Source: an uncultured bacterium | GTDB taxonomy: Bacteria > Fidelibacterota > Marinisomatia > Marinisomatales > AB-629-J13 | Direction: 5' to 3' | DNA: 42,852 nucleotides | NCBI GenBank assembly: GCA_964606925.1 | Contig: CAZSIH010000006.1 | Location: 1-42,852 of the forward strand | Shown here: positions 16,223 to 32,423 of the stretch, piece after piece | Layout: every line of letters starts with the position of its first letter | Numbering within the stretch: position 1 is the first letter of the stretch | Made by a program: the position numbers and the translations under genes | Notes under the pieces: model-generated | The model's database searches: none | Seen by the model: only the letters and a program-made list of their open reading frames with translations | What the model was told of the DNA's origin: nothing

Positions 16223-16244
16223 TATATTTTCACTGAAGGTTCCA

Positions 16245-17099
16245 TTGAGGTTCATTTCTTATTATTTTATAGGTGGACTCTTTTTAATTTTTGTAAACGG
16301 ATGTACGCCTGTTTATCTTCTCTCTCATCATCCGAATCTGAGTGAAAAAGTATTTGAATTAAAAGTAAACAGGACATTACGAAAAGCGGAGGAAAATCCT
16401 TTTAATTCAACCATCCTTCTTGAAGCACAAATACGATTAACCCAATATGGATATATTTTTCAATTAGAAATGGGAGATCGGAAAATTTATAATGATTATT
16501 TAGCATCCAAACAAGTGTATTCTGAAGCAAAACAGTCTTTTTCTGAAGCATTAGTTCTTGGTAAAAATGCGCTGAGAATTTCCTATCCTGAAATTGATCT
16601 ATGGCTGTTGGATCCTGAACATATAAAAATAAATTTTGAGATACAGCATATTTCCAATTTATATTGGACAGCAGCTTCAATAGGTGGATTCATCAAAGCA
16701 GGGAAGGGATCTCCGGAAGCAGTGGTATTATTACCTCAGGTCGGTTTACTCTTGAATACCGCTTTGAATCTTGATCCATCTTGGGGAAACGGACGTATTT
16801 ATTCAGCATTAATCTCTTACACAATGTCTGAATTTCCTGTTACCAAAGAAAAGAGAAAAAGGGTGAAATATTTTTTTGATGAAGCTGTCAGATTATCTTA
16901 TGGAAAAGATGCAGGTCCGTATGTGGCATATGCTGAGTCGGTGTCCGTAAAAAATCAGGATAAGGATGAATTTATCCATTTACTGAATAAAGCATTTACG
17001 ATTCCCTCTTCGGATGATGAGGAAATTAATCTTCAAAATCTTATCGCACGAAACCGTGCAAAATGGTTATTATCCAGAACTGATGAATTATTTTATTAA
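16245..17099 (+). CDS. TRAP transporter TatT component lipoprotein
   Basis: Lipobox VNGC, Y...F, LYWTA...G, AL.LD.....G, V.YAE......Q...EF..LL..A, N.IA..RA.WLL....ELF; directly upstream of dctP. Start (TTG 16245) uncertain. Confidence 0.82.
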   Translation: MRFISYYFIGGLFLIFVNGCTPVYLLSHHPNLSEKVFELKVNRTLRKAEENPFNSTILLEAQIRLTQYGYIFQLEMGDRKIYNDYLASKQVYSEAKQSFSEALVLGKNALRISYPEIDLWLLDPEHIKINFEIQHISNLYWTAASIGGFIKAGKGSPEAVVLLPQVGLLLNTALNLDPSWGNGRIYSALISYTMSEFPVTKEKRKRVKYFFDEAVRLSYGKDAGPYVAYAESVSVKNQDKDEFIHLLNKAFTIPSSDDEEINLQNLIARNRAKWLLSRTDELFY

Positions 17100-17114
17100 G
17101 ACTATCTGTAAAAC

Positions 17115-18128
17115 ATGAGAAGAATTTTTATCCTGATTATTTTCATTGGATTGACTTTCCCGTTATTTGCGAAGAAAACCGTAATTAAATTAGCAACTTT
17201 AGCTCCTGATGGTTCAGAATGGTACTATATGTTGGTTGATTTAGGACAACGATGGGAAGCCGCAACCGAAGGCAGAGTCAGACTTAGAATATATCCTGGT
17301 GGAGTAATAGGCGATGAACGGGACATGATACGAAAAATGAGAATTGGGCAGATCCACGGAGCCGCTATTACTGCGGAAGGATTATCTGAACTTAACCCTG
17401 ATTTTTATATGTTTTTTATTCCCCTGCTCTTTGACAATTATAAGGAAGTTGATTTTATTCGATCTGAATTGAAAGATGATTTATACAATGGAATTCGATC
17501 AAATGGATTTGAACTCATGATGATCAATGATGTGGGTTGGGTTTATTGGTTCACAACTCAACCTATAAAAAATCCGGATGATCTTAAAAACCATAAAATA
17601 TTTAATTGGGCAGGAGATTACAAATTTTCTGAAATTTGGGAAAAAGCCGGATATCAATCCGTTCCTCTTTCTTCTATTGATATTCTTCCGGGTTTACAGA
17701 CGGGATTAATTGATGCCATCTCCAGTAATCCACAGTTTGCGCTAGCCCAGCAGATGTTCGGAATTTGTAAAAACATGCTTGAGTTAAAATGGGGATTATT
17801 AACGGGAGGAATTGTCGTTGATTCAAAAATATTTAATAGTATTGATTTCAAGGATAAAGAAGCAATTTTAAACATTTCCAAAGAATTTGAAAAACAATAT
17901 CAGGCAACTCTAAGGTATCGAGATAAAGAAGCTATTGAAGTGATGAAGGAGTACGATTTAAAAGTAACTCAACTCACTGTTGAAGAAAAAAACAACTGGA
18001 ATTCAATCGTGGACGATTGGTACCCAAGTATTCGAGAAATATTTACACATCCGGAATTTTTTGACAAAATTATTGAATTAAAAAAATCATATAATAAAAA
18101 GATAGCAGATTCGAATGACTCTGACTAA
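17115..18128 (+). CDS. dctP: TRAP transporter substrate-binding protein DctP (TatP type)
   Basis: IKLATLAPDGS.W, T.GRV...IYPGG..GDE..M.RKMRIGQ, LQTG.IDA. Confidence 0.92.
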   Translation: MRRIFILIIFIGLTFPLFAKKTVIKLATLAPDGSEWYYMLVDLGQRWEAATEGRVRLRIYPGGVIGDERDMIRKMRIGQIHGAAITAEGLSELNPDFYMFFIPLLFDNYKEVDFIRSELKDDLYNGIRSNGFELMMINDVGWVYWFTTQPIKNPDDLKNHKIFNWAGDYKFSEIWEKAGYQSVPLSSIDILPGLQTGLIDAISSNPQFALAQQMFGICKNMLELKWGLLTGGIVVDSKIFNSIDFKDKEAILNISKEFEKQYQATLRYRDKEAIEVMKEYDLKVTQLTVEEKNNWNSIVDDWYPSIREIFTHPEFFDKIIELKKSYNKKIADSNDSD

Positions 18129-19929
18129 TCCCCCAGTCGATCATGAAAACCATTTTAATGAGAGACTGAAATGGGGTGAAGATGTTCTGGCTATTTCTGT
18201 GTTTTTTGCCATCACGTTTCTTCCTTTTTATGACATCATTGCAAGGATCTTTCAACTAAAAAGTATTCCCGCTTCTCAAATAATTATTCAACATCTGACG
18301 CTTTGGACAGGATTTCTGGGAGCTGTTCTTGCTACACGTCAAAATAAACTGCTAGCACTTACCCGAAAACCATTATTTGTTTCTGATGACGATTTCAATT
18401 TTGGAAGATGGATTTCCAAATCAGTTTCTTTTATCATTCTATGTTCTTTGATATGGGGAAGTATCCAGTTAATAAAAACTGAATTTCAGTTTCCCATTGA
18501 TATTGCACCCCACATCCCAAGATGGGTAGCTCAACTCATCATGCCGGTTGGATTTTTCTTTATAGCGTTGGAAGTTATTCTCAGAAGCGGAAACAATGCC
18601 ATGTACCGTGCTTCTATTCTAATGATGGCAATTGGGTGGTATATTGTGTGTTTTTCAGGTAATCTACAGGATTCTGGATGGTTCCCCTGGGTGGGAAGTC
18701 TTATTATTTTATTTTCCGTCTATCATGGTTTGCCAATATTTTTAGCATTGGGAGGCCTGGCTGTTTTGTATTTTTGGATGGATTATACTCCTATAGCATC
18801 CATTGCCGCAGAAACGTACAGGATCGTTGTATCACCAACACTACCCACCATTCCTCTTTTTACTTTGGCCGGTTATATTTTAGCTGAAAGCGGAGCTCCA
18901 AAACGAATTTACATTTTTTTTAAATATGCGTTTGGATGGCTGCAGGGAGGAACACCTGTAATTGTAGTTTTACTGTGTTCTTTTTTTACTGCGCTAACGG
19001 GCGGTTCTGGTGTCACAATTCTTGCATTAGGCGGAATTCTTTACCCATTATTAAAAAATGAAGGATATTCAGAAAAATTTTCATTAGGATTGATCACGGT
19101 CTCAGGATCTTTGGGTTTACTTTTTCCTCCCAGTCTTCCTATGATAATTTATGGAGTAACCGCCGGAGTAAATGTTAAAGATCTCTTTATTCAGGGGTTT
19201 ATTCCGGGAGTGATTTTAGTACTGAGTATGGTTGGGTGGGTATATTTTCAGGGGAAAAAACATAAAATTGAAAGATCCAAATTTAATTGGGATAAATTAA
19301 GAAATAGCTTTTGGAAAGCAAAATGGGAAATTATCCTGCCCTTTTTAATCCTCACCGGAGTGTTCAGCGGATATATGACATTGGTGGAAACTGCGGCATT
19401 TACGGTCGTGTATATTTTAAGCATTGAAATTGTGGTTTATAAAGATTTACCAATAAAAGACCTGCCAAAAATTATCATTGACTGTGCTACCTTAATTGGG
19501 GGGGTATTGATCATCCTTGGTGTAGCAATGGGATTAACAGCCTATCTTGTAGATGCACAGATTCCCATGCGGTTACTGGAATGGATACAATCTGCAATTT
19601 CGTCTAAAATAGTATTTTTATTACTTCTAAATGTTCTGCTTCTTCTTATAGGATGCATGATGGACATTTTTTCTGCAATCATAGTTTTTGTTCCTCTCAT
19701 TGCACCTCTGGGTTTATTTTTCCAACTGGATCCAATACATTTAGCAATTATTTTTATTGCGAATCTTGAATTGGGATATTTTACCCCACCCATCGGGATG
19801 AATTTATTTTTATCTGCTTATCGTTTTAATAAATCCATGCCCGTTCTTTATAATGCGACCCTTCCATTTTTCCTGATTCGATTATTATTCGTAATGGTTC
19901 TCACATATGTTCCTTTGCTTTTTTATTAA
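18115..19929 (+). CDS. dctM: TRAP transporter fused DctQ-DctM permease
   Basis: N-terminal ~160 aa with four TMs (DctQ-like), then IPLF.LAG, TGGSG, GSLG.L.PPS, TPP.G.NLF (DctM). Confidence 0.92.
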   Translation: MTLTNPPVDHENHFNERLKWGEDVLAISVFFAITFLPFYDIIARIFQLKSIPASQIIIQHLTLWTGFLGAVLATRQNKLLALTRKPLFVSDDDFNFGRWISKSVSFIILCSLIWGSIQLIKTEFQFPIDIAPHIPRWVAQLIMPVGFFFIALEVILRSGNNAMYRASILMMAIGWYIVCFSGNLQDSGWFPWVGSLIILFSVYHGLPIFLALGGLAVLYFWMDYTPIASIAAETYRIVVSPTLPTIPLFTLAGYILAESGAPKRIYIFFKYAFGWLQGGTPVIVVLLCSFFTALTGGSGVTILALGGILYPLLKNEGYSEKFSLGLITVSGSLGLLFPPSLPMIIYGVTAGVNVKDLFIQGFIPGVILVLSMVGWVYFQGKKHKIERSKFNWDKLRNSFWKAKWEIILPFLILTGVFSGYMTLVETAAFTVVYILSIEIVVYKDLPIKDLPKIIIDCATLIGGVLIILGVAMGLTAYLVDAQIPMRLLEWIQSAISSKIVFLLLLNVLLLLIGCMMDIFSAIIVFVPLIAPLGLFFQLDPIHLAIIFIANLELGYFTPPIGMNLFLSAYRFNKSMPVLYNATLPFFLIRLLFVMVLTYVPLLFY

Positions 19930-20177: not shown

Positions 20178-21500
20178 ATGAAGCGTTTTACCCTAATACC
20201 TTTGATGGTTCTAAGTTGTCTCACTCCCGCAATTGGAAGTGAAGCAGGAGCCATATTTTTACTCATTTCACCCGGAGCCAGAGCAGGGGGAATGGGAGAA
20301 GCAAATGTGGCGGTTGCCGATGATGCGTATGCCAGTTATTGGAACCCTGCCGGATTAGGATTTTTAGAAGGATCAGAACTTGCTATGATGCATGTAAATT
20401 GGCTACCAAACCTTGCTGATGATCTGTATTATGATTTTTTTGCATTCAGAAAGCATGTACCCGATTTAGGTACATTTGGAGGTCATCTGATTTATTTGAG
20501 TCTGGGTGAACAAATTCGTATGGGGGAAGGTCCTGAAGATTATCTGGGTACATTTACAAGTTTTATGATGGCGACCACTATATCTTATAGTTCATTATTA
20601 TCACAATATTCTTCATTTGGTATAAATGCAAAGATTTCTTATCAGCATTTAGTAGATCTGGGAGCCGGTGCTGAAAAAGGGAAAGGAACCTCTCTGGATT
20701 TCGGGTTTGACCTTGGATATCTCAGAAAAGAATTCCTTACCCCAAAATTGGATATTGGAATAACAATCACAAATATTGGACCTAAAGTAGCGTTCATAGA
20801 TCCTGCACAAGCAGATCCCCAACCTACAAACCTTACCTTTGGAATTAATTACAGGGTGATTGACAGTGAATTCAACAAATTATCCCTAATTTATGATGTA
20901 AATAAATTACTTGTTGCATCCTATCCCGATATGGATTGGGATGGAGATGGTTTTGTCGGTCGCTATGATGATGAAGGTCATTACAGCATTAGCGGAGAAT
21001 ATAATCAAAATGGAGATCAGGAAACTGCGCATACAGATCCCGTTTATATTGCATTATTTACATCATGGGTAGATGACTGGCTATTAGGCGGGGATACTGA
21101 TTTTAGCGGTGATGGGAAAATCGGCGGATATGATTCAGAAGGATTTCCGACAGATTCAATTTCTTTTGGTGCTCCAGGATATGGTGAATATGGATGTGAG
21201 GACACGGAAATTAATTGTTCAGAAGAAAATTTAGTTTTGGAGGTTGGTACGGGTGATTCCAGAACTATTAAAAATGAGTTAGAAAAACTGGTTCATAATT
21301 TTGGAATGGAATATTGGTATTCCAAGTATTTTGCCCTGCGGGCAGGTTATTATTTGGATCAATCCGGAAAAATATCAAATCCGACATTTGGAGTTGGACT
21401 GCGGTTTTCCGGTTATGGATTTGATTTTGGTTACACTTCCGGAGATCCTGGGCATCCACTTACCAACACAATGCGCTTTTCCCTTAACTGGGAATTTTAA
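20178..21500 (+). CDS. porV: PorV/PorQ family outer-membrane barrel (T9SS shuttle-like)
   Basis: FLLISPGARAGGMGE..VA..DDA.A.YWNPAGL, WLP.L..D, N.GPK, P.NL..G, FALRAGYY, HPL.NT.RFSL. Confidence 0.88.
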   Translation: MKRFTLIPLMVLSCLTPAIGSEAGAIFLLISPGARAGGMGEANVAVADDAYASYWNPAGLGFLEGSELAMMHVNWLPNLADDLYYDFFAFRKHVPDLGTFGGHLIYLSLGEQIRMGEGPEDYLGTFTSFMMATTISYSSLLSQYSSFGINAKISYQHLVDLGAGAEKGKGTSLDFGFDLGYLRKEFLTPKLDIGITITNIGPKVAFIDPAQADPQPTNLTFGINYRVIDSEFNKLSLIYDVNKLLVASYPDMDWDGDGFVGRYDDEGHYSISGEYNQNGDQETAHTDPVYIALFTSWVDDWLLGGDTDFSGDGKIGGYDSEGFPTDSISFGAPGYGEYGCEDTEINCSEENLVLEVGTGDSRTIKNELEKLVHNFGMEYWYSKYFALRAGYYLDQSGKISNPTFGVGLRFSGYGFDFGYTSGDPGHPLTNTMRFSLNWEF

Positions 21501-21515
21501 AACCCTTCGTATTTA

Positions 21516-24305
21516 ATGTATAAAAATTTCTGCAGGATTTTAATCCCATTCCTGCTTTTCGCACTTCAGTATATTTCTGGTGATGTGATTGGACAAAAAA
21601 AAGTGATTTGTCTTCGGGTGGAGTTTCAGGAAAGTGAATCCTCTGGTACAACAGGAAATGGCCATTTTTTAATGAATCCGGATACATCATGCGGAAATTA
21701 CCTTATTGATCCTCCTCCCCATGATAAAGCATATTTTGAATCCCAATTGAAAGCAATGAACAATTATTTTCAAAGTGTATCCTACGAAAAATTTGGAATA
21801 GACTTGGAACAATCCAAAATTTATCCGGAATCGAATAATTTTGCATATACCTTACAGTTTCCCATGAATTATTATAATCCCTATGGCGAAACTGAAACTG
21901 TAAAAGAAGAGAGGTTAGTTAAATTATTCAAAGATGCAATTTCTGTTGCTGATTCTGTAGATTTAATTTCATTTGATGATTCAGATTTTGTGATTGTTTT
22001 TCATGCAGGAATTGGACAGGATTTCAGTTTACCATATTTGGATCCAACGCCGGAAGATATTCCAAGTACTTATGTGGATAGAGAAATGTTGGGAGAACCA
22101 TTTCTGGGTATTGAACATGGAATTATTCTACCGGAAACGGAAAACCATTTATTGTATGAAGAGGGAAGTGTTTTATTTGATCAATCTTCCCAACCTTGTG
22201 ATTATCAATATGGATTAACGGGAGTCATGGCTTTGATGGTTGGATTTGCTTCCGGCTTACCACCACTTTGGGATTTGGAGTCAGGAGAAAGTAGAATCGG
22301 TATTTTTGGACTAATGGACCAAGGATCAAATAATGGGAGAGGTTTAATCCCTTCTCCTCCCGATGCATGGACACGAATAGTTGCAGGGTGGGAAACACCA
22401 ACAACAATAAGTACTCTGAATTCGGTTTCAATATTGTCAAGACATGAAGGTAATATTTTCAAAGTAATTATGACTGATACTGAATATTTTCTCATTGAAA
22501 ATCGAAATAATTGGATTTATTCAAATGTGAGTATTGATTCACTAAGATATACCCAGTGGGAAGAAACGGACCGATACCCACCATTTATTGAGATATTGAT
22601 GGATTCGGTTAATATTGAAAAAGATGATAACGGTGTCATCACCCAAATTCCCAATTACGATTTAGGATTACCTGCTTCCGGTTTGCTGATTTGGCATATT
22701 GATGAAACTATAATAAATAATGGAATCGATAATTACACTATTAATTCGGATCGTATTCTAAAAGGGGTTGACTTGGAAGAAGCAGATGGTGCCCAAGATA
22801 TTGGTTATCCGTCTATTTTTCTATTTCAGGATCCATCCAGTGGTTATTTTGGAGATATGTGGTTTGACGGAAATCCTGAGTATGAAAGATTAAACAGTGA
22901 ATTTGATCTCCCTGAATTTGGTCCATTTACGTATCCAAATACACATACCAATAACGCTACTGCAACCTATTTAAAAATATTTGATATAAGTGAGCCAGGA
23001 GATACAATGTCATTTTCGGTTTCAAATTCTTATCAATTAGACGGATTTCCAGATTTCTCTGCACATTTCCAATTAATTTACCAATATGAATCAGGGCAAA
23101 ATATTATTGGAGGAATTGATTCAGTCCGGTGGGCTTCATATCTCGATCCATTTGAAAGGACAATTTTATATACTAAGCAATCAATTGAAAATTCATTGTT
23201 TTTTACCCAAGGGAGGGTAATTGAGGAAGAAATACTACATATAATCGAACACGGGGAAAACACATCCATTTGGAATAAGTTTGAATGGAAAGAACATGAA
23301 AATAGATACGATTTGATGGAGCAAACTTTTTATGATTCAATTATTTACATTCTCGCTGAATTAGAGACAGATGTTTTATTTAGTGTAAATGATGAATCTT
23401 ATAATAATTTTTTAAAAACCGCCATGGTAATACAAGAAAATGATACGGTTTCTTTCTTTATTGATGAAAATATTTTGAGGATAGAATCGGGATTTTCAGA
23501 TGATAAATCGGTCTATTTTGACCATAATTTAAATAATCTTATTGCTATTGATTTAGATTTGGATGGAAGGGGAGACGCAATTATTTTGGATGAAAATGGA
23601 ACTCTATTTGCTATAGACCAAAATGGTAGTTTAATGCCGGGATTTCCTGTCAATGGAAGTTTTGATGGAAATATTTTTGCCAATCAGATTTTAGATGATA
23701 ATCACCCTGAAATTATAGTTGAAGATTTAATTAATAAGAAATATTTCATCATTAATTGGAATGGAGATATTGAATTATCTTTTCCTTTATCAAACTCAGA
23801 AAGAGTAAAATTTATTTATGAAAGGATTTTAAATGAGGGTAGTTTTATTTTCAAAGTCAAAGAGGTAGGTACATCTTTTTCAATATGGTCTTTTTCCTTT
23901 GGATCGGATTCGTCCTATATATCTTATTGTTGCAATGAGTGGAATTATCCTAACGGAGATATGGGACACACCCGAACGTTAAAATTGAACTATTCAATTT
24001 CATCCCCAATTCAAGATCAATTATTTGATTCAAACAGAACTTATGCTTATCCGAATCCGGCAACTGAAAATTACGTAAAGATCAGAATTCAGGTAGAATC
24101 TGCCAATAATATCGAATGCAAGATTTATGATTTAGCTGGATTTTATATTGATAAACTAATTTTAGATAATCCAATTCAGGGAATGCCGAATGAAATAGTT
24201 TGGGATGTGTCTGATGTAGAATCAGGAATTTACTATATTGATCTTACGGTTCAGGGAAATAACCAAACCCAGTCGAAATTGATCAAAGCAGGAATTGTGC
24301 ACTAA
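21516..24305 (+). CDS. M6 (immune inhibitor A)-like metalloprotease homologue lacking zinc ligands, with FG-GAP-like region and T9SS type A C-terminal domain
   Basis: YF..VSY, IVFHAG.G, EYFLIENR, GLLIWHIDE, LEEADG..D; DLDLDG and PGFPV; CTD YAYPNP...IYDLAG...WD...SGIY...K. Confidence 0.8.
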   Translation: MYKNFCRILIPFLLFALQYISGDVIGQKKVICLRVEFQESESSGTTGNGHFLMNPDTSCGNYLIDPPPHDKAYFESQLKAMNNYFQSVSYEKFGIDLEQSKIYPESNNFAYTLQFPMNYYNPYGETETVKEERLVKLFKDAISVADSVDLISFDDSDFVIVFHAGIGQDFSLPYLDPTPEDIPSTYVDREMLGEPFLGIEHGIILPETENHLLYEEGSVLFDQSSQPCDYQYGLTGVMALMVGFASGLPPLWDLESGESRIGIFGLMDQGSNNGRGLIPSPPDAWTRIVAGWETPTTISTLNSVSILSRHEGNIFKVIMTDTEYFLIENRNNWIYSNVSIDSLRYTQWEETDRYPPFIEILMDSVNIEKDDNGVITQIPNYDLGLPASGLLIWHIDETIINNGIDNYTINSDRILKGVDLEEADGAQDIGYPSIFLFQDPSSGYFGDMWFDGNPEYERLNSEFDLPEFGPFTYPNTHTNNATATYLKIFDISEPGDTMSFSVSNSYQLDGFPDFSAHFQLIYQYESGQNIIGGIDSVRWASYLDPFERTILYTKQSIENSLFFTQGRVIEEEILHIIEHGENTSIWNKFEWKEHENRYDLMEQTFYDSIIYILAELETDVLFSVNDESYNNFLKTAMVIQENDTVSFFIDENILRIESGFSDDKSVYFDHNLNNLIAIDLDLDGRGDAIILDENGTLFAIDQNGSLMPGFPVNGSFDGNIFANQILDDNHPEIIVEDLINKKYFIINWNGDIELSFPLSNSERVKFIYERILNEGSFIFKVKEVGTSFSIWSFSFGSDSSYISYCCNEWNYPNGDMGHTRTLKLNYSISSPIQDQLFDSNRTYAYPNPATENYVKIRIQVESANNIECKIYDLAGFYIDKLILDNPIQGMPNEIVWDVSDVESGIYYIDLTVQGNNQTQSKLIKAGIVH

Positions 24306-24306
24306 T

Positions 24307-24451
24307 TTGATTTTCACTTTAATAAAACTGAAAAATCAATTCAAAAACCCCCACTTTTTTTCTCCCCTTTTAAAGGAGAGAATGATAGGGAATAGCATAA
24401 ATTGGTCGATCAATTTACTTTCCCCTGTCATAGGGGAAATAAAAAGGGGTA
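24307..24451. repeat. Cluster of four inverted repeats (terminator / REP-like / structured RNA)
   Basis: TTGATTTTCA/TGAAAAATCAA; TTCTCCCCTT/AAGGAGAGAA; near-perfect palindrome TAAATTGGTCGATCAATTTA; TTTCCCCT/AGGGGAAA. Confidence 0.65.
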
Positions 24452-24588
24452 CTAATTTTTGTAATGACTACCAGTCTCGTACAAAAATTGATTTTGATGT
24501 TATTGATTTTTTAAGGTTTAAATAATTTAGGCATAATCCAATCGTATTTTTCTATTCAATTTTTTATATAACCAAGGGAAGAATAGGA

Positions 24589-27534
24589 GTGATACTAAAA
24601 AATAGTTTTTTACACATAGTTATTACAAATTTAATATTCATTTCTGTTTCTGTTGGACAAACCAAATACAACCATCCCGAAATTGATTGGCAAACATTTG
24701 AAACTGAACATTTTTTAATTCATTTTTATGATGACACGGAACATTCTGCCAGGGAAGGTGCTAAAGTCGCTGAACGAATCTATCCGATTATAACTGATTT
24801 GTACAACTATGAACCTCCCCAAAAAACTCACATTATTTTTACAGATGTTGATGATATTTCAAACGGTGCTGCCTATTATTACGATAATAAAATTATTATC
24901 TGGACGTCTCCTTTAGATTTTGATCTGCGAGGAAGTCACCGCTGGCTGCAGAATGTGATCACTCATGAATTCACACATATTGTTTCCATACAAAAAGCCA
25001 TGAAATTCGGTCAGAATATTCCCGGAGGATATCTCCAATTTATGGGATATGAAGATATCAAACGAAAAGATGTCTTGTATGGCTACCCAAATGTGCTCAT
25101 AAGTTATCCTATCCCAGGAACGGTTGTTCCGCCTTGGCTTGCAGAAGGAACAGCTCAATATATGTATGAAAATGCAGATTGGGATAATTGGGACACTCAT
25201 CGAGATATGATTTTGAGAGACAGATTTTTAAACGACAATTTGTTATCCCTTGCGGAAATGAACACATTTGGGAAAACCGGAATTGGAAATGAATCCACCT
25301 ATAATTCTGGTTATGCTCTCTGCAGTTTTATTGCTGAAAATTACGGAAGTGAATCTTTGCGGAAAATTATGGATGAATTATCTAATCCATTTTCTTTTTC
25401 AGTATATTCTGCTATAGAAAACACTATAGGAATTTCTGCTAAAAAATTATATAATAATTTCAAAAATGAACTTGGGAATAAATATTCAAATTTTGGTAAG
25501 ATCATTTCTGACAATGAAAAAACGGGAAATATTATTATATCAGAAGGGAGTACTAATCTTCATCCTGCTTGGTCTCCAATTGGAGATAAATTTTCTTATA
25601 TATCGAATAAAAATAATGATTATTTTGGACAAACTTCACTTTATGTCTATGAAATAAATACAAAAAAAGATACGTTAATATCCAGCGGTGTCCAGAGTAA
25701 GGCTTCGTGGAGTGGTGATGGAACTAAAATTGTTTATTCTAAAAAACCAAAATATCCCAATAAACATGGATCAAAATATTTTGATTTATTTCAATACGAT
25801 TTCAAAACTAAAAAAGAGTCACGGCTGACGAATGAATCCAGAGGGTTTTCCCCGGTATGGATTTCTGATTCTACTTTAGCATATATTGCCACATTCGGAG
25901 GAATCCAAAATATATTTTTATGGGACAATGAATCAAAAACATCCGATAAACTGACGAATTTCAGTGATAAACGAATCGTCCATTCCCTCTATTTTGATAA
26001 TAATAATGACAGGATTATTTTTGATCATACTTTGAATCATTTTCGTGATGTCGGTTATTATGATTTTAAAGAGCAGAAAATCAAAAATATATTGGCCAAT
26101 CCATGGGATGAACGCTCATTAATTAAGAATAAAAATAGTTATATTTATTCTGATGACAAATCAGGAATTTTTAATTTGGCAATGATTGATGACTCCGGAA
26201 ATAAAAAATATATTACCAATGTAACCGGTGGTACGTTTATGCCGGATGTGAATGAAAAAGGGCAGATTCTATTTTCAATTTATAAAAATGGTAAATATTC
26301 AATCTCCATTATAGAATCAATTCAATTTTGTGAACCACCTGTTTTAAGAGAAAGAGAATTTGATTTTACACCACCAATTATGACAGAGAGGGAAGATAAA
26401 AAAGAAACATACGAAGACCAGTTTCCCCCCATGTTTATCCTGCCAAAATTGATGAGTGACTATAAAACGATCAAACCGGGATTTTATTTCTACTCCAGTG
26501 AAATTTTGGAACGATTAACCCTTTTTGGTGGGGCTTCTTCAAATTTGAATAAGGATATGGATTTATTTTTTTTATTGGAGTTCAAGCGATTTTATCCAAC
26601 ATTATTTGTGGAAGTATTTTACCTTACCAGGAATAAATTTGAACAAAATCAATATTCGGTTTATCCGGTAGATGATAATTTAAAATTCAGAATGATCCAG
26701 TTTAGATTTGGAGCAAAAATATCTGTTCTGGGAATCCACTCCGTTGAATCTTACTTTACTTGGCAAAGATACAGGGCATTTTTCAAAAGAAGCATCCCTC
26801 TTGAAAACTTCCAGGGAGGCGCTGCTTATGATTATTTTCGTGGATTATTAGCAGGAATACAATGGAAAACAAAGTCATTAAAACGCAGAGCCGGTTTTGG
26901 ATTTCTCCCCTCAAAAGGATTTGAGATTGATCTACACATTAGCTATGAACATAATGAATTTATCACCGGATTGAATCTGTCTGAATCGGGAACATTATTG
27001 GAAGAGTTTTCTCCGAATCATACCGGTAAATTGGAAACAACAGGAACTTACAATTTAGAAATCCCTAAAACAAATGGATGGATGCTTTCAACCAACACAA
27101 GTTTAGGATATCTCACCAATTCAAAAGTAGATTCCTTTTTTCACTTTTTTGCAGGAGGCTTGCCGGGATTAAAAGGATATCCTTTTTATAGTATAGAAGG
27201 AACAAAAAAAGGAATTGAAACTATGTCCCTTAGAATTCCAATAATAAAAAATCATAACATTCCCATTGGTTTTTTTACATTTCAAAACAGCTCCCTTGGA
27301 TTCGTTTATAGCATAGGAGATGCATGGAGAAAAACTAATGAAATTGAGTGGAAACAATCAGCCGGACTAGAGTTAAGAATCAATGGATTTTCCTTTTATA
27401 ATTATCCAACGGCAATCACCATGGAAATTCATAGAGGATTGAATTCATTTACCAATGAGATTGGGGGTGAAACTCTTAAATTCGGAGGTGAAAATCAGTT
27501 TTATTTATCGATTTTATTTGGTTTTAATAATTAA
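24589..27534 (+). CDS. Peptidase MA (HExxH) + TolB/PD40 propeller + Omp85/BamA-like barrel protein
   Basis: W....TEHF...F, THEFTH, PPWLAEG; PAWSP.G and SWS.DG repeats; GG..GLKGY loop-6-like motif; C-terminal beta-signal-like YLSILFGF. Confidence 0.78.
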   Translation: MILKNSFLHIVITNLIFISVSVGQTKYNHPEIDWQTFETEHFLIHFYDDTEHSAREGAKVAERIYPIITDLYNYEPPQKTHIIFTDVDDISNGAAYYYDNKIIIWTSPLDFDLRGSHRWLQNVITHEFTHIVSIQKAMKFGQNIPGGYLQFMGYEDIKRKDVLYGYPNVLISYPIPGTVVPPWLAEGTAQYMYENADWDNWDTHRDMILRDRFLNDNLLSLAEMNTFGKTGIGNESTYNSGYALCSFIAENYGSESLRKIMDELSNPFSFSVYSAIENTIGISAKKLYNNFKNELGNKYSNFGKIISDNEKTGNIIISEGSTNLHPAWSPIGDKFSYISNKNNDYFGQTSLYVYEINTKKDTLISSGVQSKASWSGDGTKIVYSKKPKYPNKHGSKYFDLFQYDFKTKKESRLTNESRGFSPVWISDSTLAYIATFGGIQNIFLWDNESKTSDKLTNFSDKRIVHSLYFDNNNDRIIFDHTLNHFRDVGYYDFKEQKIKNILANPWDERSLIKNKNSYIYSDDKSGIFNLAMIDDSGNKKYITNVTGGTFMPDVNEKGQILFSIYKNGKYSISIIESIQFCEPPVLREREFDFTPPIMTEREDKKETYEDQFPPMFILPKLMSDYKTIKPGFYFYSSEILERLTLFGGASSNLNKDMDLFFLLEFKRFYPTLFVEVFYLTRNKFEQNQYSVYPVDDNLKFRMIQFRFGAKISVLGIHSVESYFTWQRYRAFFKRSIPLENFQGGAAYDYFRGLLAGIQWKTKSLKRRAGFGFLPSKGFEIDLHISYEHNEFITGLNLSESGTLLEEFSPNHTGKLETTGTYNLEIPKTNGWMLSTNTSLGYLTNSKVDSFFHFFAGGLPGLKGYPFYSIEGTKKGIETMSLRIPIIKNHNIPIGFFTFQNSSLGFVYSIGDAWRKTNEIEWKQSAGLELRINGFSFYNYPTAITMEIHRGLNSFTNEIGGETLKFGGENQFYLSILFGFNN

Positions 27535-27555
27535 TTGTTTTTGGAGAAATGGAAC

Positions 27556-28545
27556 ATGAATAAGTTTGTTTTATCAATGTTTTTTTGTACTTCCATCATT
27601 TTTGGAGGAAATCTACTGGAAAACTATGACGGTAGGTTTGAACCGAATTATATCTTGAGTGATACTACAGATATATCAACCTCTGAAGAATCAGTTAATT
27701 CTAAACAAATATATCCCGCCCGTTCATTGGTGCGATCTTTGATTTTTCCCGGATGGGGACAAATTTATAATCAATCCCCGTGGTGGAAATCGGTATTATT
27801 TGCTGGAGTGGAAATTGCCGGAATTGCAGGATGGCTGGAATGGAATAAAAAAGCAGAAGGAGTACGATTGGATTATGAAAATTTTGCTGATAATAAATGG
27901 AGCATTTTAAATTGGATAACATTCACACAACAATTAAGTGATATTATTTCCGACAGTCTTCCAGCCTGGGATACAGATGTAAAAATAGAAGGAACTCATC
28001 ATTTGGATATTGTTTATAATGATCAGATATATTCGTCTGATTGTTTATATGATTTGAATTGGGATATGGAAGGAGGTGAGGATGATTGTACACTTCCCGG
28101 AACTCCGGACGGTATGGATGAGGATCTTTATAATACTGCATATATTCCGACATTAATTGAGAATGGTTCAATAAATGTTATTAAGGACAGAGATTATTAC
28201 GAAAATATTGGAAAATATGATCAATTTGTGGCAGGTTGGGATGAAATATTGGGAAATTATATTATTCAGTACAAGGACGTTGGAGACACGACGGAAATTA
28301 TTATTTCCAGTTCAATAAAAGATAATTATTTATCTCAAAGGGAAAAAAGTAATGAGTATTTGACCATGGCAACTTATGCTGTCAGCGCAGTGATGTTTAA
28401 TCATATTCTCAGCGCATTTGAAGCTGTTTGGACATCAACTCGTAAAACAAGAGAGACTAAACCGATTGATACTTCTGTGAAACTCATCTATGATAAATAT
28501 GCTCAATATGGAGTTGGTGGAGTTTCTTTTTCAATAAATTTTTAA
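27556..28545 (+). CDS. Exported/membrane protein with DUF5683-like motif
   Basis: SLIFPGWGQIYN..WWK, YYE.IGKY.QF..GW, N...SA..A; aromatic C-terminal strand. GGAG site before ATG 27556. Confidence 0.65.
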   Translation: MNKFVLSMFFCTSIIFGGNLLENYDGRFEPNYILSDTTDISTSEESVNSKQIYPARSLVRSLIFPGWGQIYNQSPWWKSVLFAGVEIAGIAGWLEWNKKAEGVRLDYENFADNKWSILNWITFTQQLSDIISDSLPAWDTDVKIEGTHHLDIVYNDQIYSSDCLYDLNWDMEGGEDDCTLPGTPDGMDEDLYNTAYIPTLIENGSINVIKDRDYYENIGKYDQFVAGWDEILGNYIIQYKDVGDTTEIIISSSIKDNYLSQREKSNEYLTMATYAVSAVMFNHILSAFEAVWTSTRKTRETKPIDTSVKLIYDKYAQYGVGGVSFSINF

Positions 28546-28555
28546 ATATGAGTAT

Positions 28556-29314
28556 ATGATGAATTATTTAAGATTATGGATTGTCGTTCCCACATTAATT
28601 TGGATGGGATGCGCAGGAAATATTACGGATGATGATAATTATGATACCCAATTCAAGGAAGCATTACGCTTATTAGAAAAGGAAAAATTTATCAGTGCGC
28701 AGGATATTTTAAACAGATTGGCAATTCGGGCGTCTCATACTGACATGGGTGATAACATTCAATATCATTTGGGAGAATCATATTTTTTAAACGAAGAATA
28801 TCAGTTAGCTATCATTGAATATGATAAATTGGTCCGAAGAATGGGATTCAGTCCCTTGGTTGAACAGGCTCGTTGGAGAATTTGTGAATGTTATGTAGCC
28901 ATGTCGCCTAAATACTATTTAGATCAAGTATCTTCAGAAAAAGCTATCGATAAACTTCAGGAATTTCTGGAAGATTATCCTTATTCTGATCAAAAAATAT
29001 CTGCAAATAACACTGTTCAGAATTTGAGGAATAAATTGGGTGAAAAAGCAATTGGAGCCGGAATATTATATATAAAATTAGGTGCTTATGACTCTGCAAT
29101 TCTTGCTTTTGAACAGATGCTTGAAGATTTTTATGATACAGAATATGTTTCAGAAGCACATCTGGGGATTATTCGTTCCTACAGCGCCATGGAAAAAGTG
29201 GATGAAGTCGAAAAATACTATCAATCTTTTAAACATGTATTCTCCAATGATATGGATATAGAAGCTAATGAAATCATAAATGATTTGAAAAAAAGAATAT
29301 TAAAAAAAGGGTAA
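28556..29314 (+). CDS. bamD: Outer membrane protein assembly factor BamD
   Basis: Lipobox WMGC, TPRs, SP....DQ....AI..LQ.F...YP.S, Y.K...Y.SA. Confidence 0.88.
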   Translation: MMNYLRLWIVVPTLIWMGCAGNITDDDNYDTQFKEALRLLEKEKFISAQDILNRLAIRASHTDMGDNIQYHLGESYFLNEEYQLAIIEYDKLVRRMGFSPLVEQARWRICECYVAMSPKYYLDQVSSEKAIDKLQEFLEDYPYSDQKISANNTVQNLRNKLGEKAIGAGILYIKLGAYDSAILAFEQMLEDFYDTEYVSEAHLGIIRSYSAMEKVDEVEKYYQSFKHVFSNDMDIEANEIINDLKKRILKKG

Positions 29315-29901
29315 TGAAAATATGTTTATTCGGAGGAACATTTGATCCTCCTCATTTAGGTCATTTACTCATTGCACAAACGGTTTGTGAAGCAGAAAAT
29401 TTTGATAAAATAGTATTTATTCCTGCGCTAAATCCTCCTCATAAAAATCGGAATGATATTACCCCGGTTAAATTAAGGTTGGAAATGCTTGAAACCGCTG
29501 TATTGGATAATCCCCGATTTGAAATATCACAAATGGAGATACTGAGGGGTGGAACATCCTTTTCTGTCGATACAATAAAGCAATTCAAAACTGAAAATCA
29601 ATTAACTAAAGATAATCTATTCTTTCTCATAGGAAGTGATACACTGGGGAAATTTGATTTATGGAAAGAACCAAAAATAATTGTGGATGAATGTTCTGTT
29701 CTGGTAGCAGTTCGCCCAGGATTTAAACCAAGTACCATTCCGAATTGGATTTTGCATAATATCCAATTCGCAAATATCCCGAGATTTGAAATATCCAGTT
29801 CTAATATTCGCAGACGTTGGAAGGAGAATAAAACAATTCGATACATGGTAACTCTATCTGTATGGGATACGATCAATAAATACAATTTATATTCATCATG
29901 A
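29314..29901 (+). CDS. nadD: Nicotinate-nucleotide adenylyltransferase
   Basis: GGTFDPPHLGH, PPHK, IGSD, ISSS.IR. Confidence 0.96.
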   Translation: MKICLFGGTFDPPHLGHLLIAQTVCEAENFDKIVFIPALNPPHKNRNDITPVKLRLEMLETAVLDNPRFEISQMEILRGGTSFSVDTIKQFKTENQLTKDNLFFLIGSDTLGKFDLWKEPKIIVDECSVLVAVRPGFKPSTIPNWILHNIQFANIPRFEISSSNIRRRWKENKTIRYMVTLSVWDTINKYNLYSS

Positions 29902-30818
29902 TCACCAGTATTCTTTACCTGATCTTTGGATCAATTTTATTATTTTTTGGAGCAGACTGGATGGTGAAATCGTCTGTTCATATAGCTACAAAATTAAAAA
30001 TTTCCAGGTTTGTAATTGGGCTTACAATTGTTGCATTCGGTACATCTCTTCCTGAGTTGGGTGTGAGTTTAAAAGCAGCATTATTTGATAAATCTGGAAT
30101 TGCAATAGGGAATATAATCGGATCCAATATAACCAATGTACTTTTGGTATTAGGATGTTGTTCGTTGATCAGTCCAATAACAATTTCATTTACAAAAATC
30201 AAAAGAGATCTGTTGATATATTTAGGTGTCTGTGTTGTCCTGATTTTATTTTTGTGGAATGGTAATTTAGATCGATGGGAAGGAATTCTCTTGTTCGCCG
30301 GTGTTATAATTTACACTATTTATTCTTTTAGGACGGGTAATTCCCAGGATGAAGAATTTGAAGACTCAATTTCCTCATGGCGATGGACAATTTTACTTTT
30401 AGTGTTAGGTATCGTATTGCTTTATATTGGATCTGAAATTTTTATTGAAGGGGCCATCCTTTTTGCAACAATCATGGGAATAAGCGAATTAATCATAGGG
30501 ATGTCTGTGGTTGCCTTAGGAACATCCATCCCTGAATTAGTGACTTCCGTAGTTGCTACCGTTAAAAAAGAATATTCTATTTCAATAGGCAATATTATTG
30601 GTTCCAATTTATTTAATATATTATCTGTATTGGGATTAGTCTCTATTATTACACCTTTATCTGTTGAAAAAAGCATTTTTAATTTTGAAATTCCTTTCAT
30701 GATTGGAACCGGACTATTATTAATACCCATTGGTTTCATGAATAAACCAATTTCAAAAGGGATTTCCATTTCTATGCTCCTAGGATATACCGCATTCATT
30801 TTTATATTATTCATTTAG
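29898..30818 (+). CDS. Calcium/sodium antiporter (YrbG family)
   Basis: Two alpha repeats GTSLPE...GNIIGSN and GTSIPE...GNIIGSN. Confidence 0.93.
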   Translation: MITSILYLIFGSILLFFGADWMVKSSVHIATKLKISRFVIGLTIVAFGTSLPELGVSLKAALFDKSGIAIGNIIGSNITNVLLVLGCCSLISPITISFTKIKRDLLIYLGVCVVLILFLWNGNLDRWEGILLFAGVIIYTIYSFRTGNSQDEEFEDSISSWRWTILLLVLGIVLLYIGSEIFIEGAILFATIMGISELIIGMSVVALGTSIPELVTSVVATVKKEYSISIGNIIGSNLFNILSVLGLVSIITPLSVEKSIFNFEIPFMIGTGLLLIPIGFMNKPISKGISISMLLGYTAFIFILFI

Positions 30819-30830
30819 CAAATATTTAAT

Positions 30831-31496
30831 ATGATCTTATTTCAGAATGTATCACTTCAGTACGAGCCTGAAGCCGGTGTTCAAGATATTACATTTCAAA
30901 TCCAACCGGATGAATTTGCTTTTCTGATCGGTCCCACAGGTTCGGGAAAATCCACCATTCTGAAATTGATTTATATGGAGCTGTTTCCTGATAGCGGAAC
31001 CATTGAAATATTAGGATTTTCTTCAAAAAAAATTAAAAAAAGGAAAATTCCATTATTGAGAAGAAAAGTGGGAATGATATTTCAAGATTACAGGTTATTA
31101 AGAGATAGAAATATCTTTGAAAATATTGCTTTACCCCTCCATGTTATTGGATACGGAAGGGAAGAAGTATTTGATCGGGTAAAAAATGTAATAATTGATG
31201 TGGGATTAGAAGGGAAAGAAAAGAGAAAACCGGATGAACTTTCAGGTGGAGAACAACAGAGAGCCTGCATTGCAAGGGCACTTGTGAAAGAGCCGGAAAT
31301 TATTTTAGCTGATGAACCCTCGGCTAATTTGGATCCTGATTCCGCCAGGAATTTGTTGGAATTATTAGAAAATATCCATTCAAATGGTACACTTGTTTTG
31401 ATGGCAACTCATCAATGGAAGCATTTTTATTTTGATTTAATAAAAGACCGGGAACATCGGATTTTTAATATTGAAAATGGACGGTTAGTTGATTAA
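30831..31496 (+). CDS. ftsE: Cell division ATP-binding protein FtsE
   Basis: [34 protein letters not shown]; upstream of ftsX. Confidence 0.93.
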
Positions 31497-32359
31497 TGAA
31501 TAAAACTGTTTTTCTGATAGTAGAAGGATTAACAAATTTGTGGAGACATAAGGGTACAGCTTTTATCTCAATTATAACGGTTTGTTTGTCTCTTGTTTTT
31601 TTAGGACTTTTGTTAATCATCGATGAAAATTCTGATAAATTTCCGAAATTATTCCGATCAAAGTACAAGGTGGAGGTCTTTTTTAAAGAGGAAGTAACCG
31701 ATGAGGGTGCTGAGCATATTATCCGGCAGATTGCAACTCATTCTATAGTGAAAAAAGTAACTTTGGTCAAAAAGGAAGATGCACTCCATATTTATAAAGA
31801 TGAATTTGGGGAAAATGTTTTGGATATGTTAGGATTCAACCCATTTCCTGCAAGTTGTATCATTAAATTGCAGGAACAGAATTTTGCAACAACCAAAGCA
31901 GAATCACTACTAAGGAAGATAAAGAAAATCAAAGGAGTTTCATCTATTTATTATCAGGGAAAATTGATTACAAGACTGGAAACTCTGTATGGTTACTTTC
32001 TGGGTTACATGAAAATTCTGGTAGGAGTTGTATTGATGATTTCCATTCTCTTTATTACCAATACGATAAAACTGACCATTTATGCACGTTCCGAATTAAT
32101 TCAGAATTTAAAATTGATAGGAGCTACAAATATCTTTGTAAAGATTCCATTTATATTTGAGGGAATGTTTCAATCAATCACCGGAGCATGTCTTGCTTAT
32201 GGGATTTTGATTATTATGATGGATGGGTTAAACAGCATATTGAATGAGTGGGTTTCTATTCAATTGAATATGGATGGATTATTGCCTGTTTGGTTAATAA
32301 TCGTTTCTACCACAATTGGTTTGATAGGCAGTTTAAAGGCGGTGTCAAAATTTCTTTAA
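31496..32359 (+). CDS. ftsX: Cell division permease FtsX
   Basis: TM1, periplasmic NP.P.S, I.NTIKL.IYAR..I...KLIGA...F...PF..EG. Confidence 0.93.
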   Translation: MNKTVFLIVEGLTNLWRHKGTAFISIITVCLSLVFLGLLLIIDENSDKFPKLFRSKYKVEVFFKEEVTDEGAEHIIRQIATHSIVKKVTLVKKEDALHIYKDEFGENVLDMLGFNPFPASCIIKLQEQNFATTKAESLLRKIKKIKGVSSIYYQGKLITRLETLYGYFLGYMKILVGVVLMISILFITNTIKLTIYARSELIQNLKLIGATNIFVKIPFIFEGMFQSITGACLAYGILIIMMDGLNSILNEWVSIQLNMDGLLPVWLIIVSTTIGLIGSLKAVSKFL

Positions 32360-32386
32360 TTATTTTTAATAGAAACGCCTACTTCC

Positions 32387-32416
32387 TTGACATTAGAATC
32401 CTGACTTGGTTAATTT
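32387..32416 (+). promoter_or_regulatory. Putative sigma70 promoter of hrcA-grpE-dnaJ
   Basis: Perfect TTGACA (32387-32392), N18, TAATTT (32411-32416). Confidence 0.55.
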
Positions 32417-32423
32417 TTACGTT

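Follow-up and report, generated by a model that had tools for sequence, protein, structure and literature searches.

What does a gene for a PorV-family barrel do beside genes for a T9SS protein that has lost its protease motif, an Omp85-type barrel that carries an intact one, a DUF5683-like protein and BamD? Such a run of genes lies on a 42,852-nucleotide contig of an uncultured bacterium of the Marinimicrobia (the whole stretch analysed, which we refer to as the window). Marinimicrobia (SAR406) abound in the interior of the ocean, and many predicted T9SS cargo proteins are encoded in those of their genomes that we searched, while knowledge of the T9SS comes almost wholly from a few Bacteroidota. 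An earlier note on this DNA had described five co-oriented envelope genes with these domains, and suggested that the inactive protein may be the dedicated partner of PorV, the Omp85-fused peptidase supplying proteolysis, in a T9SS/BAM-linked variant of surface assembly or quality control.

The description holds: all five open reading frames were confirmed at the coordinates given there, all on the + strand, and their domains are upheld by profile scores and structural models (Table 1). The porV gene, the gene for the CTD-bearing inactivated M6-like protein (which we refer to as M6i), the peptidase-propeller-Omp85 gene and the DUF5683-like gene form one colinear, conserved outer-membrane module, whilst bamD is a phylum-specific neighbour and not a core part of it. 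The module probably forms an unstudied T9SS accessory, with a mechanism that we infer from genomic data. Two of its parts were catalogued beforehand, the M6i family (NCBIfam NF052323) and the 'WD40-Omp85' subfamily (Heinz & Lithgow 2014); in the literature on T9SS, PorV and inactivated metalloproteases, on DUF5683, on fused Omp85/TolB/metallopeptidase proteins and on the Marinimicrobia T9SS, no description of the module as such was found.

Table 1 Features of the PorV locus in the window.
Feature	Position	Strand	Description
porV (P0001)	20178..21500	+	440 aa; PorV/PorQ family, FadL/PorV-family outer-membrane barrel
M6i (P0002)	21516..24305	+	929 aa; CTD-bearing inactivated M6-like protein
Spacer	24306..24588	.	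283 nt, AT-rich, two short hairpins
Peptidase-propeller-Omp85 gene (P0003)	24589..27534	+	981 aa; zinc peptidase, TolB-like propeller and Omp85-type barrel
DUF5683-like gene	27535..28545	+	336 aa; Pfam DUF5683 32.3 bits
bamD	28556..29314	+	252 aa; TIGR03302 104.4 bits; TPR lipoprotein

A PorV-family barrel and an inactivated M6-like protein

The porV product scored 240.3 bits against the family model NF033709 (cut-off 90) and 85.8 bits against Pfam PorV, and at 183.7 bits it fell under the cut-off of 250 for the PorV equivalog (NF033710), which KSB1-like orthologues at the same gene position reach in two metagenome loci (L143 and L146, 260 and 250 bits). It was the best of eight PorV-family matches in the genome. 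Its sole match among PDB sequences (E-value up to 10) was F. johnsoniae PorV (6h3i_F, E-value 1.7e-25), spanning both ends of the protein (residues 23–272 and 364–440), and an Asp/Gly-rich insertion occupies residues ~250–360. An identity as BamG was considered and rejected on account of this match.

M6i comprises a signal peptide, an M6-like domain, a middle region and a type-A T9SS CTD (residues 845–923), the last of these over the cut-off in two models (PF18962, 36.9 bits, cut-off 27; TIGR04183, 30.9 bits). It matched NF052323 ('T9SS-dependent M6-like inactivated metalloprotease') across the N-domain and C-terminus with 423 bits and, because this is under the cut-off of 600, we class it as a diverged relative and not as an equivalog; the match to peptidase family M6 (TIGR03296, 50.1 bits, cut-off 110.8) was also under threshold. 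Residues 240–244 read LMVGF where HExxH would be expected, and LMxGF replaces HExxH at the motif position in all 24 of 24 M6i orthologues. By profile M6i belongs with the NF052323 proteins, in which HExxH is likewise lost and a type-A CTD present, but the members above the cut-off, which are ~1040–1075 aa long and come from lineages of the KSB1/Calditrichota type, frequently retain the final His (LMFGH), whereas the Marinimicrobia proteins carry LMxGF. The genome also encodes a true M6 protease paralogue (contig C76; TIGR03296, 123.9 bits, HEFFH), to which hhalign aligned M6i with a probability of 66%, although the register around the zinc site is doubtful; pairing LMVGF with HEFFH gave the best ungapped register, yet this score was reached in 229 of 500 shuffles and is therefore not significant alone. 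Profile searches of PDB sequences with M6i, as a single sequence and as an alignment, gave no match.

A peptidase-propeller-Omp85 protein and its DUF5683-like neighbour

Profiles identified a Peptidase_MA_2 domain and a TolB propeller in the 981-aa protein. The zinc site is HEFTH (residues 126–130), with HExxH kept in 37 of 37 orthologues, the TolB-like beta-propeller (residues ~310–575) is supported by both profile and fold, and a POTRA-less, Omp85-type barrel of 16 strands occupies residues ~615–977. The AF2 model (mean pLDDT 81) placed this barrel at the C-terminus, after the peptidase, the propeller and a linker of ~40 residues. Modelled by itself (pLDDT 76.5), the barrel recruited Omp85 proteins throughout the Foldseek matches listed (ranks 1–50; best E-value 1.2e-6, TMq about 0.4–0.47), the best being F. 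johnsoniae BamA (9n2d_A), and a search with the whole protein was dominated by propeller matches. In VIA-align the top 16 matches were all Omp85 (Z 15.7–18.4), by a small margin, because other 16–18-strand barrels come next at Z 15.5. BamA and TamA were the best structural matches. Pfam Omp85 (PF01103) gave no match in the 981-aa protein at E-values up to 1, and 31.4 bits (cut-off 24) in the orthologue from metagenome locus L186; a barrel profile found no match among PDB sequences, and neither profiles nor the model revealed a POTRA domain N-terminal to the barrel. Within the loop GGLPGLKGYPF, the candidate for the (V/I/L)RG(Y/F)-type motif of Omp85 loop L6, G856, G857, G860, G863 and Y867 are invariant; when the barrel profile was compared with the genome's BamA in hhalign, this loop paired with 'LRGYP', the probability being just 2%. 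Judged by its modelled fold, the protein is a member of the Omp85 superfamily with a 16-strand barrel of the BamA/TamA/FhaC type, and the earlier description of an Omp85-like barrel joined to a peptidase domain that keeps HExxH is supported.

The protein belongs to the 'WD40-Omp85' subfamily, defined in the cited sections of Heinz & Lithgow 2014 (PMC4104836) by an Omp85 barrel that carries a fused TolB-like propeller on its N-terminal side. It shares with that subfamily a propeller in place of POTRA domains, but differs in its peptidase domain and its T9SS context, neither of which appears in those sections ('peptidase' occurs 0 times in them).

For the DUF5683-like gene, an ATG at 27556 is the likelier start, and the match of its product to PF18935, over the cut-off of 26.7 bits, is confined to model positions 3–48 of 151. 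The protein exhibits conserved PGxGQxYN and YENIGKYDQF motifs and a C-terminal hairpin with a terminal aromatic residue, which resembles an outer-membrane beta-signal; F or W is the last residue, after alternating hydrophobic residues, in 24 of 24 orthologues. Its nearest clusters in the ESM Atlas are ~300-aa DUF5683 proteins from Fidelibacterota, Bacteroidota and Ignavibacteriota. Co-folding of the Omp85 barrel with the DUF5683-like protein, run without controls, scored 0.00 and yielded no verdict on an interface.

Conservation of gene order

Each of the five genes was found, colinear, in 37–40 of 41 genomes within the order. Across a phylum sample of 120 Marinimicrobia genomes and the present one (n = 121), the Omp85 gene was present in 110, M6i in 109, PorV in 118 and BamD in 116. 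PorV and M6i were adjacent in 105 of the 106 genomes with both, M6i and the Omp85 gene in 89 of 106 (the remaining 17 were split over contigs, none lay distant on the same contig), and porV, M6i, the Omp85 gene and bamD fell inside 12 kb in 82/102. A similar pattern emerged in 80 metagenome loci, where, counting those with room, PorV was upstream of M6i in 68/68, the Omp85 gene downstream in 52/53, and the DUF5683-like gene followed the Omp85 gene in 43/44. Amongst distant M6i representatives, 11 of 42 reach the NF052323 cut-off, with relatives labelled KSB1 and Calditrichaeota by NCBI, and locus L151 encodes a KSB1-labelled M6i (99.9% identity). All 80 loci returned by the contig scan with the M6i alignment were labelled Marinimicrobia/Fidelibacterota or bore an uninformative label (one Winogradskyella), and the scan gives no view of other phyla. 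Adjacency held well beyond expectation when synteny was checked, both across the phylum and in KSB1-type contigs, and the idea of a non-catalytic, CTD-bearing protein fixed beside porV is borne out.

Shared descent could in principle account for such an order with no functional coupling at all, as the evidence is wholly genomic and kin are not independent. However, the order is retained at 30–45% protein identity whilst the flanks vary both upstream (GcvP, PorU or TRAP) and downstream (thioredoxin reductase, Amj or bamD), stops and starts of the module genes abut or overlap, and one family (f13, see below) is without all three middle genes, with porV left beside bamD; we consider descent by itself a very improbable explanation. 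In the window, a TRAP transporter is encoded upstream of porV and is not kept there in other loci.

T9SS machinery elsewhere in the genome and joint absence of the module

A search of the genome for components of the T9SS and BAM recovered SprA on contig C8 (579 bits, or 718 bits including neighbouring same-frame matches), a canonical BamA (474 bits) and a PorU-like sortase on contig C9 (357 bits), together with ~50 CTD matches. The NCBIfam models for GldL and GldM had no matches in the genome but also none in control genomes, and are thus uninformative, and for GldK there was merely a generic sulfatase-modifying-domain fragment. A PorU-like sortase was found in all but nine of the 121 phylum genomes (112). 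In this phylum it does not adjoin porV, and it lies ~73–80 kb from it in three genomes with both on one contig. PorU adjoins porV in just 1 of 68 metagenome loci; in locus L186, the gene immediately upstream of porV-M6i-Omp85 encodes a canonical PorU (711 bits). A substitution of M6i for PorU is contradicted by these results: M6i is no replacement, because the genome holds a PorU-like sortase elsewhere.

PorU and PorZ retain their CTDs. The locus resembles the T9SS attachment complex PorU-PorV-PorZ-PorQ of Porphyromonas gingivalis and the Bacteroidota porU-porV pair in that the gene of a CTD protein adjoins that of a PorV-family barrel, a pattern which recurs on two further contigs of this genome (PorU2-like beside PorV2-like on C55; a CTD protein with a PorQ-like barrel on C44), and in that the module is missing jointly with PorU in two lineages. 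It differs in that M6i has an inactivated M6 fold and neither the C25 sortase nor the PorZ architecture, in the addition of an Omp85-type protease and a DUF5683-like protein, and in that PorU is unlinked in Marinimicrobia.

The first of these lineages is f13, a family of streamlined genomes (~1 Mb), where M6i, the Omp85-protease and PorU were found in 0 of 6 genomes, PorV adjoins BamD in 6/6 with the three middle genes missing together, and SprA is kept in 2/2 tested. The second is genus g41, with M6i, the Omp85-protease and PorU in 0 of 2 genomes and PorV kept. The joint absences represent just two evolutionary events. The absence of M6i, the Omp85-protease and PorU together, whilst PorV is kept, points to a dispensable unit that would work after translocation; joint absence may, however, simply follow a shrunken secretome, because both lineages have very few CTD proteins (~3 hits each).

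Those small secretomes would also suit a role in surface protein degradation, in which the barrel would export its own peptidase and propeller in a type Vd-like manner, M6i would be a substrate binder delivered by the T9SS, and peptides would serve as food, the T9SS being merely used. The ~50 CTD proteins and the true M6 protease of this genome fit such a lifestyle, as do Omp85-protease paralogues unlinked to porV (C21), and PlpD, an Omp85 barrel able to display an N-terminal enzyme, offers a precedent (mentioned in the cited sections of PMC4104836). Against this, near-absolute adjacency to porV would be unexpected for ordinary cargo, no POTRA domain was detected between the enzyme part and the barrel, unlike in PlpD, and no peptide transporter lies nearby, the upstream TRAP transporter not being conserved. 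We regard surface degradation as quite unlikely.

BamD and the BAM link

The bamD product is over the TIGR03302 cut-off (81.4 bits), has YfiO and TPR Pfam matches and carries a Cys at residue 19, after the signal sequence. Of the 106 phylum genomes with both genes, 94 have bamD next to the Omp85 gene. Among 45 metagenome loci with room, bamD follows the module in 26, each of these Marinimicrobia-type, and in 0 of the 19 KSB1-like ones. Six KSB1-like loci were scanned: in five of them the place after the DUF5683-like gene is taken by another DUF5683-like gene, and in the other (L219) by an unassigned ORF. The BAM link suggested beforehand is weak, as bamD adjoins the module solely in Marinimicrobia-type loci, other genes follow in the KSB1-like loci scanned and a canonical BamA is encoded elsewhere.

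These results bear on whether the locus instead serves BAM-linked quality control, the Omp85-type protein being a BamA paralogue with a BepA-like periplasmic protease and a BamB/TolB-like propeller that would partner BamD in OMP assembly or degradation, and PorV and M6i being clients or bystanders. BepA is here presumed to be the analogue of the periplasmic protease part. BamA and TamA head the structural matches of the barrel, bamD is a frequent neighbour within the phylum, and WD40-Omp85 proteins are likened to a BamA-BamB fusion or platform in the cited sections of Heinz & Lithgow (PMC4104836). However, bamD is missing after the module in every KSB1-like locus with room, its place being taken in those scanned by the genes above, f13 retains BamD in all six genomes with no Omp85-protease found there, the canonical BamA is on another contig, and the 981-aa protein has no POTRA domain to bind BamD; BAM-linked quality control therefore appears unlikely. 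The Bacteroidota BamADGH complex (Liu et al. 2025, PMC12611786; Silale et al. 2025, PMC12578637) is similar, as there too an Omp85 barrel has BamD and a FadL-family barrel (BamG) as partners, but P0001 matches PorV and not BamG among PDB sequences, and the 981-aa protein is without POTRA domains in a genome with a separate canonical BamA.

A proposed role after translocation

We give an even chance to the overall reading, that the four genes are one conserved outer-membrane module with a role in the T9SS after translocation. M6i would be exported via SprA and remain at the surface, tethered to PorV by its uncleaved CTD much as Porphyromonas PorU is to PorV and PorZ to PorQ, and may serve there as a scaffold or binding subunit without catalysis of its own. 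The barrel of the Omp85-type protein would anchor the active zinc peptidase at the PorV/M6i site, with the TolB-like propeller as a gate, the peptidase and propeller being most likely periplasmic, like POTRA domains. The DUF5683-like protein would be a membrane partner of the Omp85-type protein, and the module would work with PorU in cargo processing, attachment, or the clearing of stalled cargo or CTDs. Points that speak against this reading are the distance between PorU and porV in the phylum, the existence of Omp85-protease paralogues away from porV, and the scores of P0001 and P0002 under their equivalog cut-offs.

More tentatively, an Omp85 barrel with a live zinc protease may be recruited to PorV via the PorV-tethered pseudoprotease, with the beta-signal-like tail of the DUF5683-like protein docked at the barrel seam. 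If true, this would be the first function for the orphan WD40-Omp85 subfamily and would mean that the T9SS outside Bacteroidota has machinery missing from Bacteroidota models. A module of four genes that keeps to porV in more than one phylum singles out three unstudied proteins as probable partners of the T9SS and provides a setting in which an Omp85 subfamily, catalogued but still orphan, can be tested, whilst its joint absence with PorU suggests the stage of the pathway to examine.

The spacer between M6i and the Omp85 gene

The spacer at 24306–24588 was confirmed and is peculiar to the present genome, the same interval measuring 0–65 nt in relatives of the same genus. Scans of the spacer yielded neither a terminator-like site nor an Rfam family that reached or approached its gathering score. 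Its second hairpin (24419–24440) is a small repeated palindromic element, which recurs on at least eight other contigs with 84–100% identity.

A conserved porV-linked gene module

The window, contig C6 in an assembly of 2.04 Mb and 94% completeness that the NCBI names of near protein relatives assign to Marinimicrobia/Fidelibacterota, carries porV, a gene for an inactivated M6-like protein (M6i), a gene for an Omp85-protease and a DUF5683-like gene, followed by bamD. ORF and profile checks confirmed the earlier note's description of five co-oriented genes (P0001–P0005). From their sequences, the best-supported reading of the first four is a T9SS accessory module. P0001 matched the PorV/PorQ family model NF033709 at 240 bits and the PorV equivalog at 184 bits, below its cut-off of 250, and its sole match among PDB sequences was F. 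johnsoniae PorV (E 1.7e-25). A type-A T9SS C-terminal domain (CTD) was detected in P0002 (M6i), which scored 423 bits, below the cut-off of 600, against NCBIfam NF052323 ‘T9SS-dependent M6-like inactivated metalloprotease’. In profile searches the 981-aa P0003 contained Peptidase_MA_2 and a TolB-like propeller, with its C-terminal 400 residues left without family assignment, the DUF5683 match of P0004 covered the first third of the model only, and P0005 was BamD. Literature searches returned no published description of the four-gene module or its porV link; two of its components have already been catalogued, the family of M6i and the WD40-Omp85 architecture.

Coordinates of the module and of associated features in the window, elsewhere in the studied genome (G000), in a relative (G003) and in metagenome loci
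Feature	Position	Remarks
TRAP transporter	window 16185-19929	directly upstream; TAtT-type T-component, DctP binding protein, fused DctQM permease; not kept beside porV in other lineages
Five ORFs, P0001–P0005	window 20178-29314	+ strand
porV	window 20178-21500	Asp/Gly-rich insertion at aa 250-360
Spacer before Omp85-protease gene	window 24306-24588	283 nt
Palindromic hairpin	window 24419-24440	22 nt, plus about 10-20 nt flank
Downstream genes	window 29314-33458	bamD overlaps nadD start by one base; then Ca/Na antiporter, ftsE, ftsX, hrcA, same strand
PorU-like sortase	G000:C9:16696-19329 (L036:6697-9303, minus strand)	868 aa; flanks maf, aconitase
PorU2-like + PorV2-like	G000:C55:492-6070 (L037)	1526-aa PorU2-like (NF052324, 165 bits) directly upstream of weak PorV2-like barrel
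P0003 paralogue	G000:C21:18565-21579 (L041:6566-9544, minus strand)	992 aa, TolB-like propeller; adjoins signal peptide peptidase SppA, no link to porV
M6i/Omp85-protease joint frame	G003:C12:13797-19463	1894 aa, no gap; same-genus relative
CreD-like envelope protein gene	L154:13096-15235	KSB1-like; between M6i and Omp85 gene
TonB-dependent-receptor-like barrel	L171:14100-17579	KSB1-like; carboxypeptidase-regulatory domain; between M6i and Omp85 gene

In this order PorV bears a ~100-residue insertion with DxDGDG-like repeats, perhaps a loop at the cell surface and possibly one that binds calcium. The streamlined family f13, whose PorV has 327 aa, lacks the insertion, as does KSB1-like PorV (about 350–400 aa).

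Synteny within and beyond Marinimicrobia

Synteny across relatives, proposed earlier as a check, proved to be conserved throughout Marinimicrobia and in KSB1-type metagenome loci. Each of the five genes was found, colinear, in 37–40 of 41 same-order genomes (40 relatives and this one). Across the phylum (120 genomes and this one), PorV was present in 118/121, BamD in 116/121, the Omp85 gene in 110/121 and M6i in 109/121. Counted from hand-transcribed gene positions, PorV and M6i were adjacent in 105 of the 106 genomes with both, M6i and the Omp85 gene in 89/106, the Omp85 gene and bamD in 94/106, and porV, M6i, the Omp85 gene and bamD all fell within 12 kb in 82/102; non-adjacent cases were all contig splits, none lying far apart on a single contig. 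A rival explanation of this conservation is that the gene order is merely inherited. The joint frame in G003 represents a genuine fusion of the two genes or else an artefact of assembly or sequencing.

Among 1.84 billion representative proteins, 584 M6i clusters were retrieved at E < 1e-30; 11 of 42 scanned clusters reached the NF052323 cut-off, and NCBI labels on their relatives were candidate division KSB1 and Calditrichaeota. Scanning metagenomes with M6i of these types as seeds gave 80 loci, including L151, whose M6i is 99.9% identical to a KSB1-labelled one. Among loci with room, PorV lay upstream of M6i in 68/68, an Omp85 gene downstream in 52/53 (exception L174) and a DUF5683-like gene after that in 43/44, and in many loci successive genes meet or overlap at their stop and start codons. 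L186 alone (1/68) has a canonical PorU (711 bits) immediately upstream of porV. A second DUF5683-like gene followed the first in five of six KSB1-like loci scanned; L219 has an unassigned ORF. Of the 45 loci long enough to show it, 26 had BamD after the module, each with an Omp85 gene scoring at least 684 bits against P0003; the 19 KSB1-like loci had none. A BAM-linked quality-control protease, a rival reading that shares its BAM link with the earlier note, loses weight because bamD adjacency is lineage-specific.

An inactive M6i and an intact peptidase

The erased protease site noted in M6i extends to all Marinimicrobia orthologues compared, with LMxGF at the motif position in 24/24, whilst KSB1-type relatives have [LI][ML]xG[HFSNA] in 22/22, the last His often retained; the loss of HExxH is solid. 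Contig C76 of the same genome encodes a true M6 protease (HEFFH present, TIGR03296 cut-off passed). LMVGF on HEFFH was the best ungapped register between the two, a pairwise match that alone is not significant, and hhalign picked a different register; the residue-by-residue mapping is one we assume provisionally.

In P0003 the intact HExxH seen earlier recurred at residue 126 in 37/37 orthologues, with H126, E127 and H130 invariant. Its proposed Omp85-like barrel was backed by structure prediction: the full-length AF2 model (pLDDT 81, pTM 0.75) comprised peptidase, propeller and C-terminal barrel, and for the barrel-only model (pLDDT 76.5) the Foldseek matches listed (ranks 1–50) were all Omp85 proteins, the best being F. 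johnsoniae BamA (E 1.2e-6). The best 16 rows in VIA-align were likewise all Omp85 (Z 15.7–18.4), with unrelated barrels close behind (Z 15.5), and the L186 orthologue exceeds the Pfam Omp85 gathering score. No POTRA domain was found in P0003. The architecture matches the ‘WD40-Omp85’ subfamily, which Heinz & Lithgow catalogued in 2014 (PMC4104836) and whose relevant passages there mention no peptidase. A third type of P0003 paralogue, about 1060 aa, was seen in relatives.

We suggest that M6i is probably a non-catalytic subunit tethered to PorV through its own CTD, that the Omp85 barrel would anchor a propeller-gated zinc peptidase, and that the DUF5683-like protein, whose beta-signal-like C-terminal hairpin is conserved in 24/24 orthologues, is probably a membrane partner of the barrel, each of these binding steps being inferred. 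As a rival to this accessory role, the Omp85-protease could be a self-displayed surface protease for feeding.

Relation to the secretion and assembly machinery

Searching the genome for sprA, porU and canonical bamA, as earlier proposed, located SprA on C8, a PorU-like sortase on C9 and BamA (474 bits) on C30. The sortase (357 bits, cut-off 420) is N-terminally short, covering model positions 473–1094 only; short forms also occur in several same-order and same-class relatives, most of the phylum having ~1300 aa and passing the cut-off. A PorU-like sortase is encoded elsewhere in the genome and M6i is therefore no substitute for PorU, contrary to the earlier idea of a dedicated PorV partner in its place. 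Further T9SS parts include about 50 CTD matches, another PorV-family barrel near SprA, a CTD protein with a PorQ-like barrel on C44, and the PorU2-like and PorV2-like genes on C55, which may be a second sortase-shuttle pair; a CTD protein beside a PorV-family barrel is a recurrent pattern in this genome. The GldL and GldM models found no match here, every control genome being silent as well.

M6i, the Omp85-protease and PorU had no match in six of six genomes of f13 (about 1 Mb, 96–99% complete), where porV lies ~1 kb from bamD (6/6), SprA is retained (2/2 tested) and about three CTD matches each were found (three genomes tested). The same three were absent in the two genomes of genus g41, which retain PorV. 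Because both lineages lack all three yet keep PorV, we argue that translocation can proceed without the module and that its components are lost together with PorU, on two loss events only, kin not being independent.

Close relatives lack the spacer upstream of the Omp85 gene, which is peculiar to this genome and in which neither an RNA family nor a terminator was detected. The hairpin within it recurs at 84–100% identity on at least eight other contigs (C15, C22, C24, C30, C40, C62, C91, C120) and resembles a small intergenic element of the REP type.
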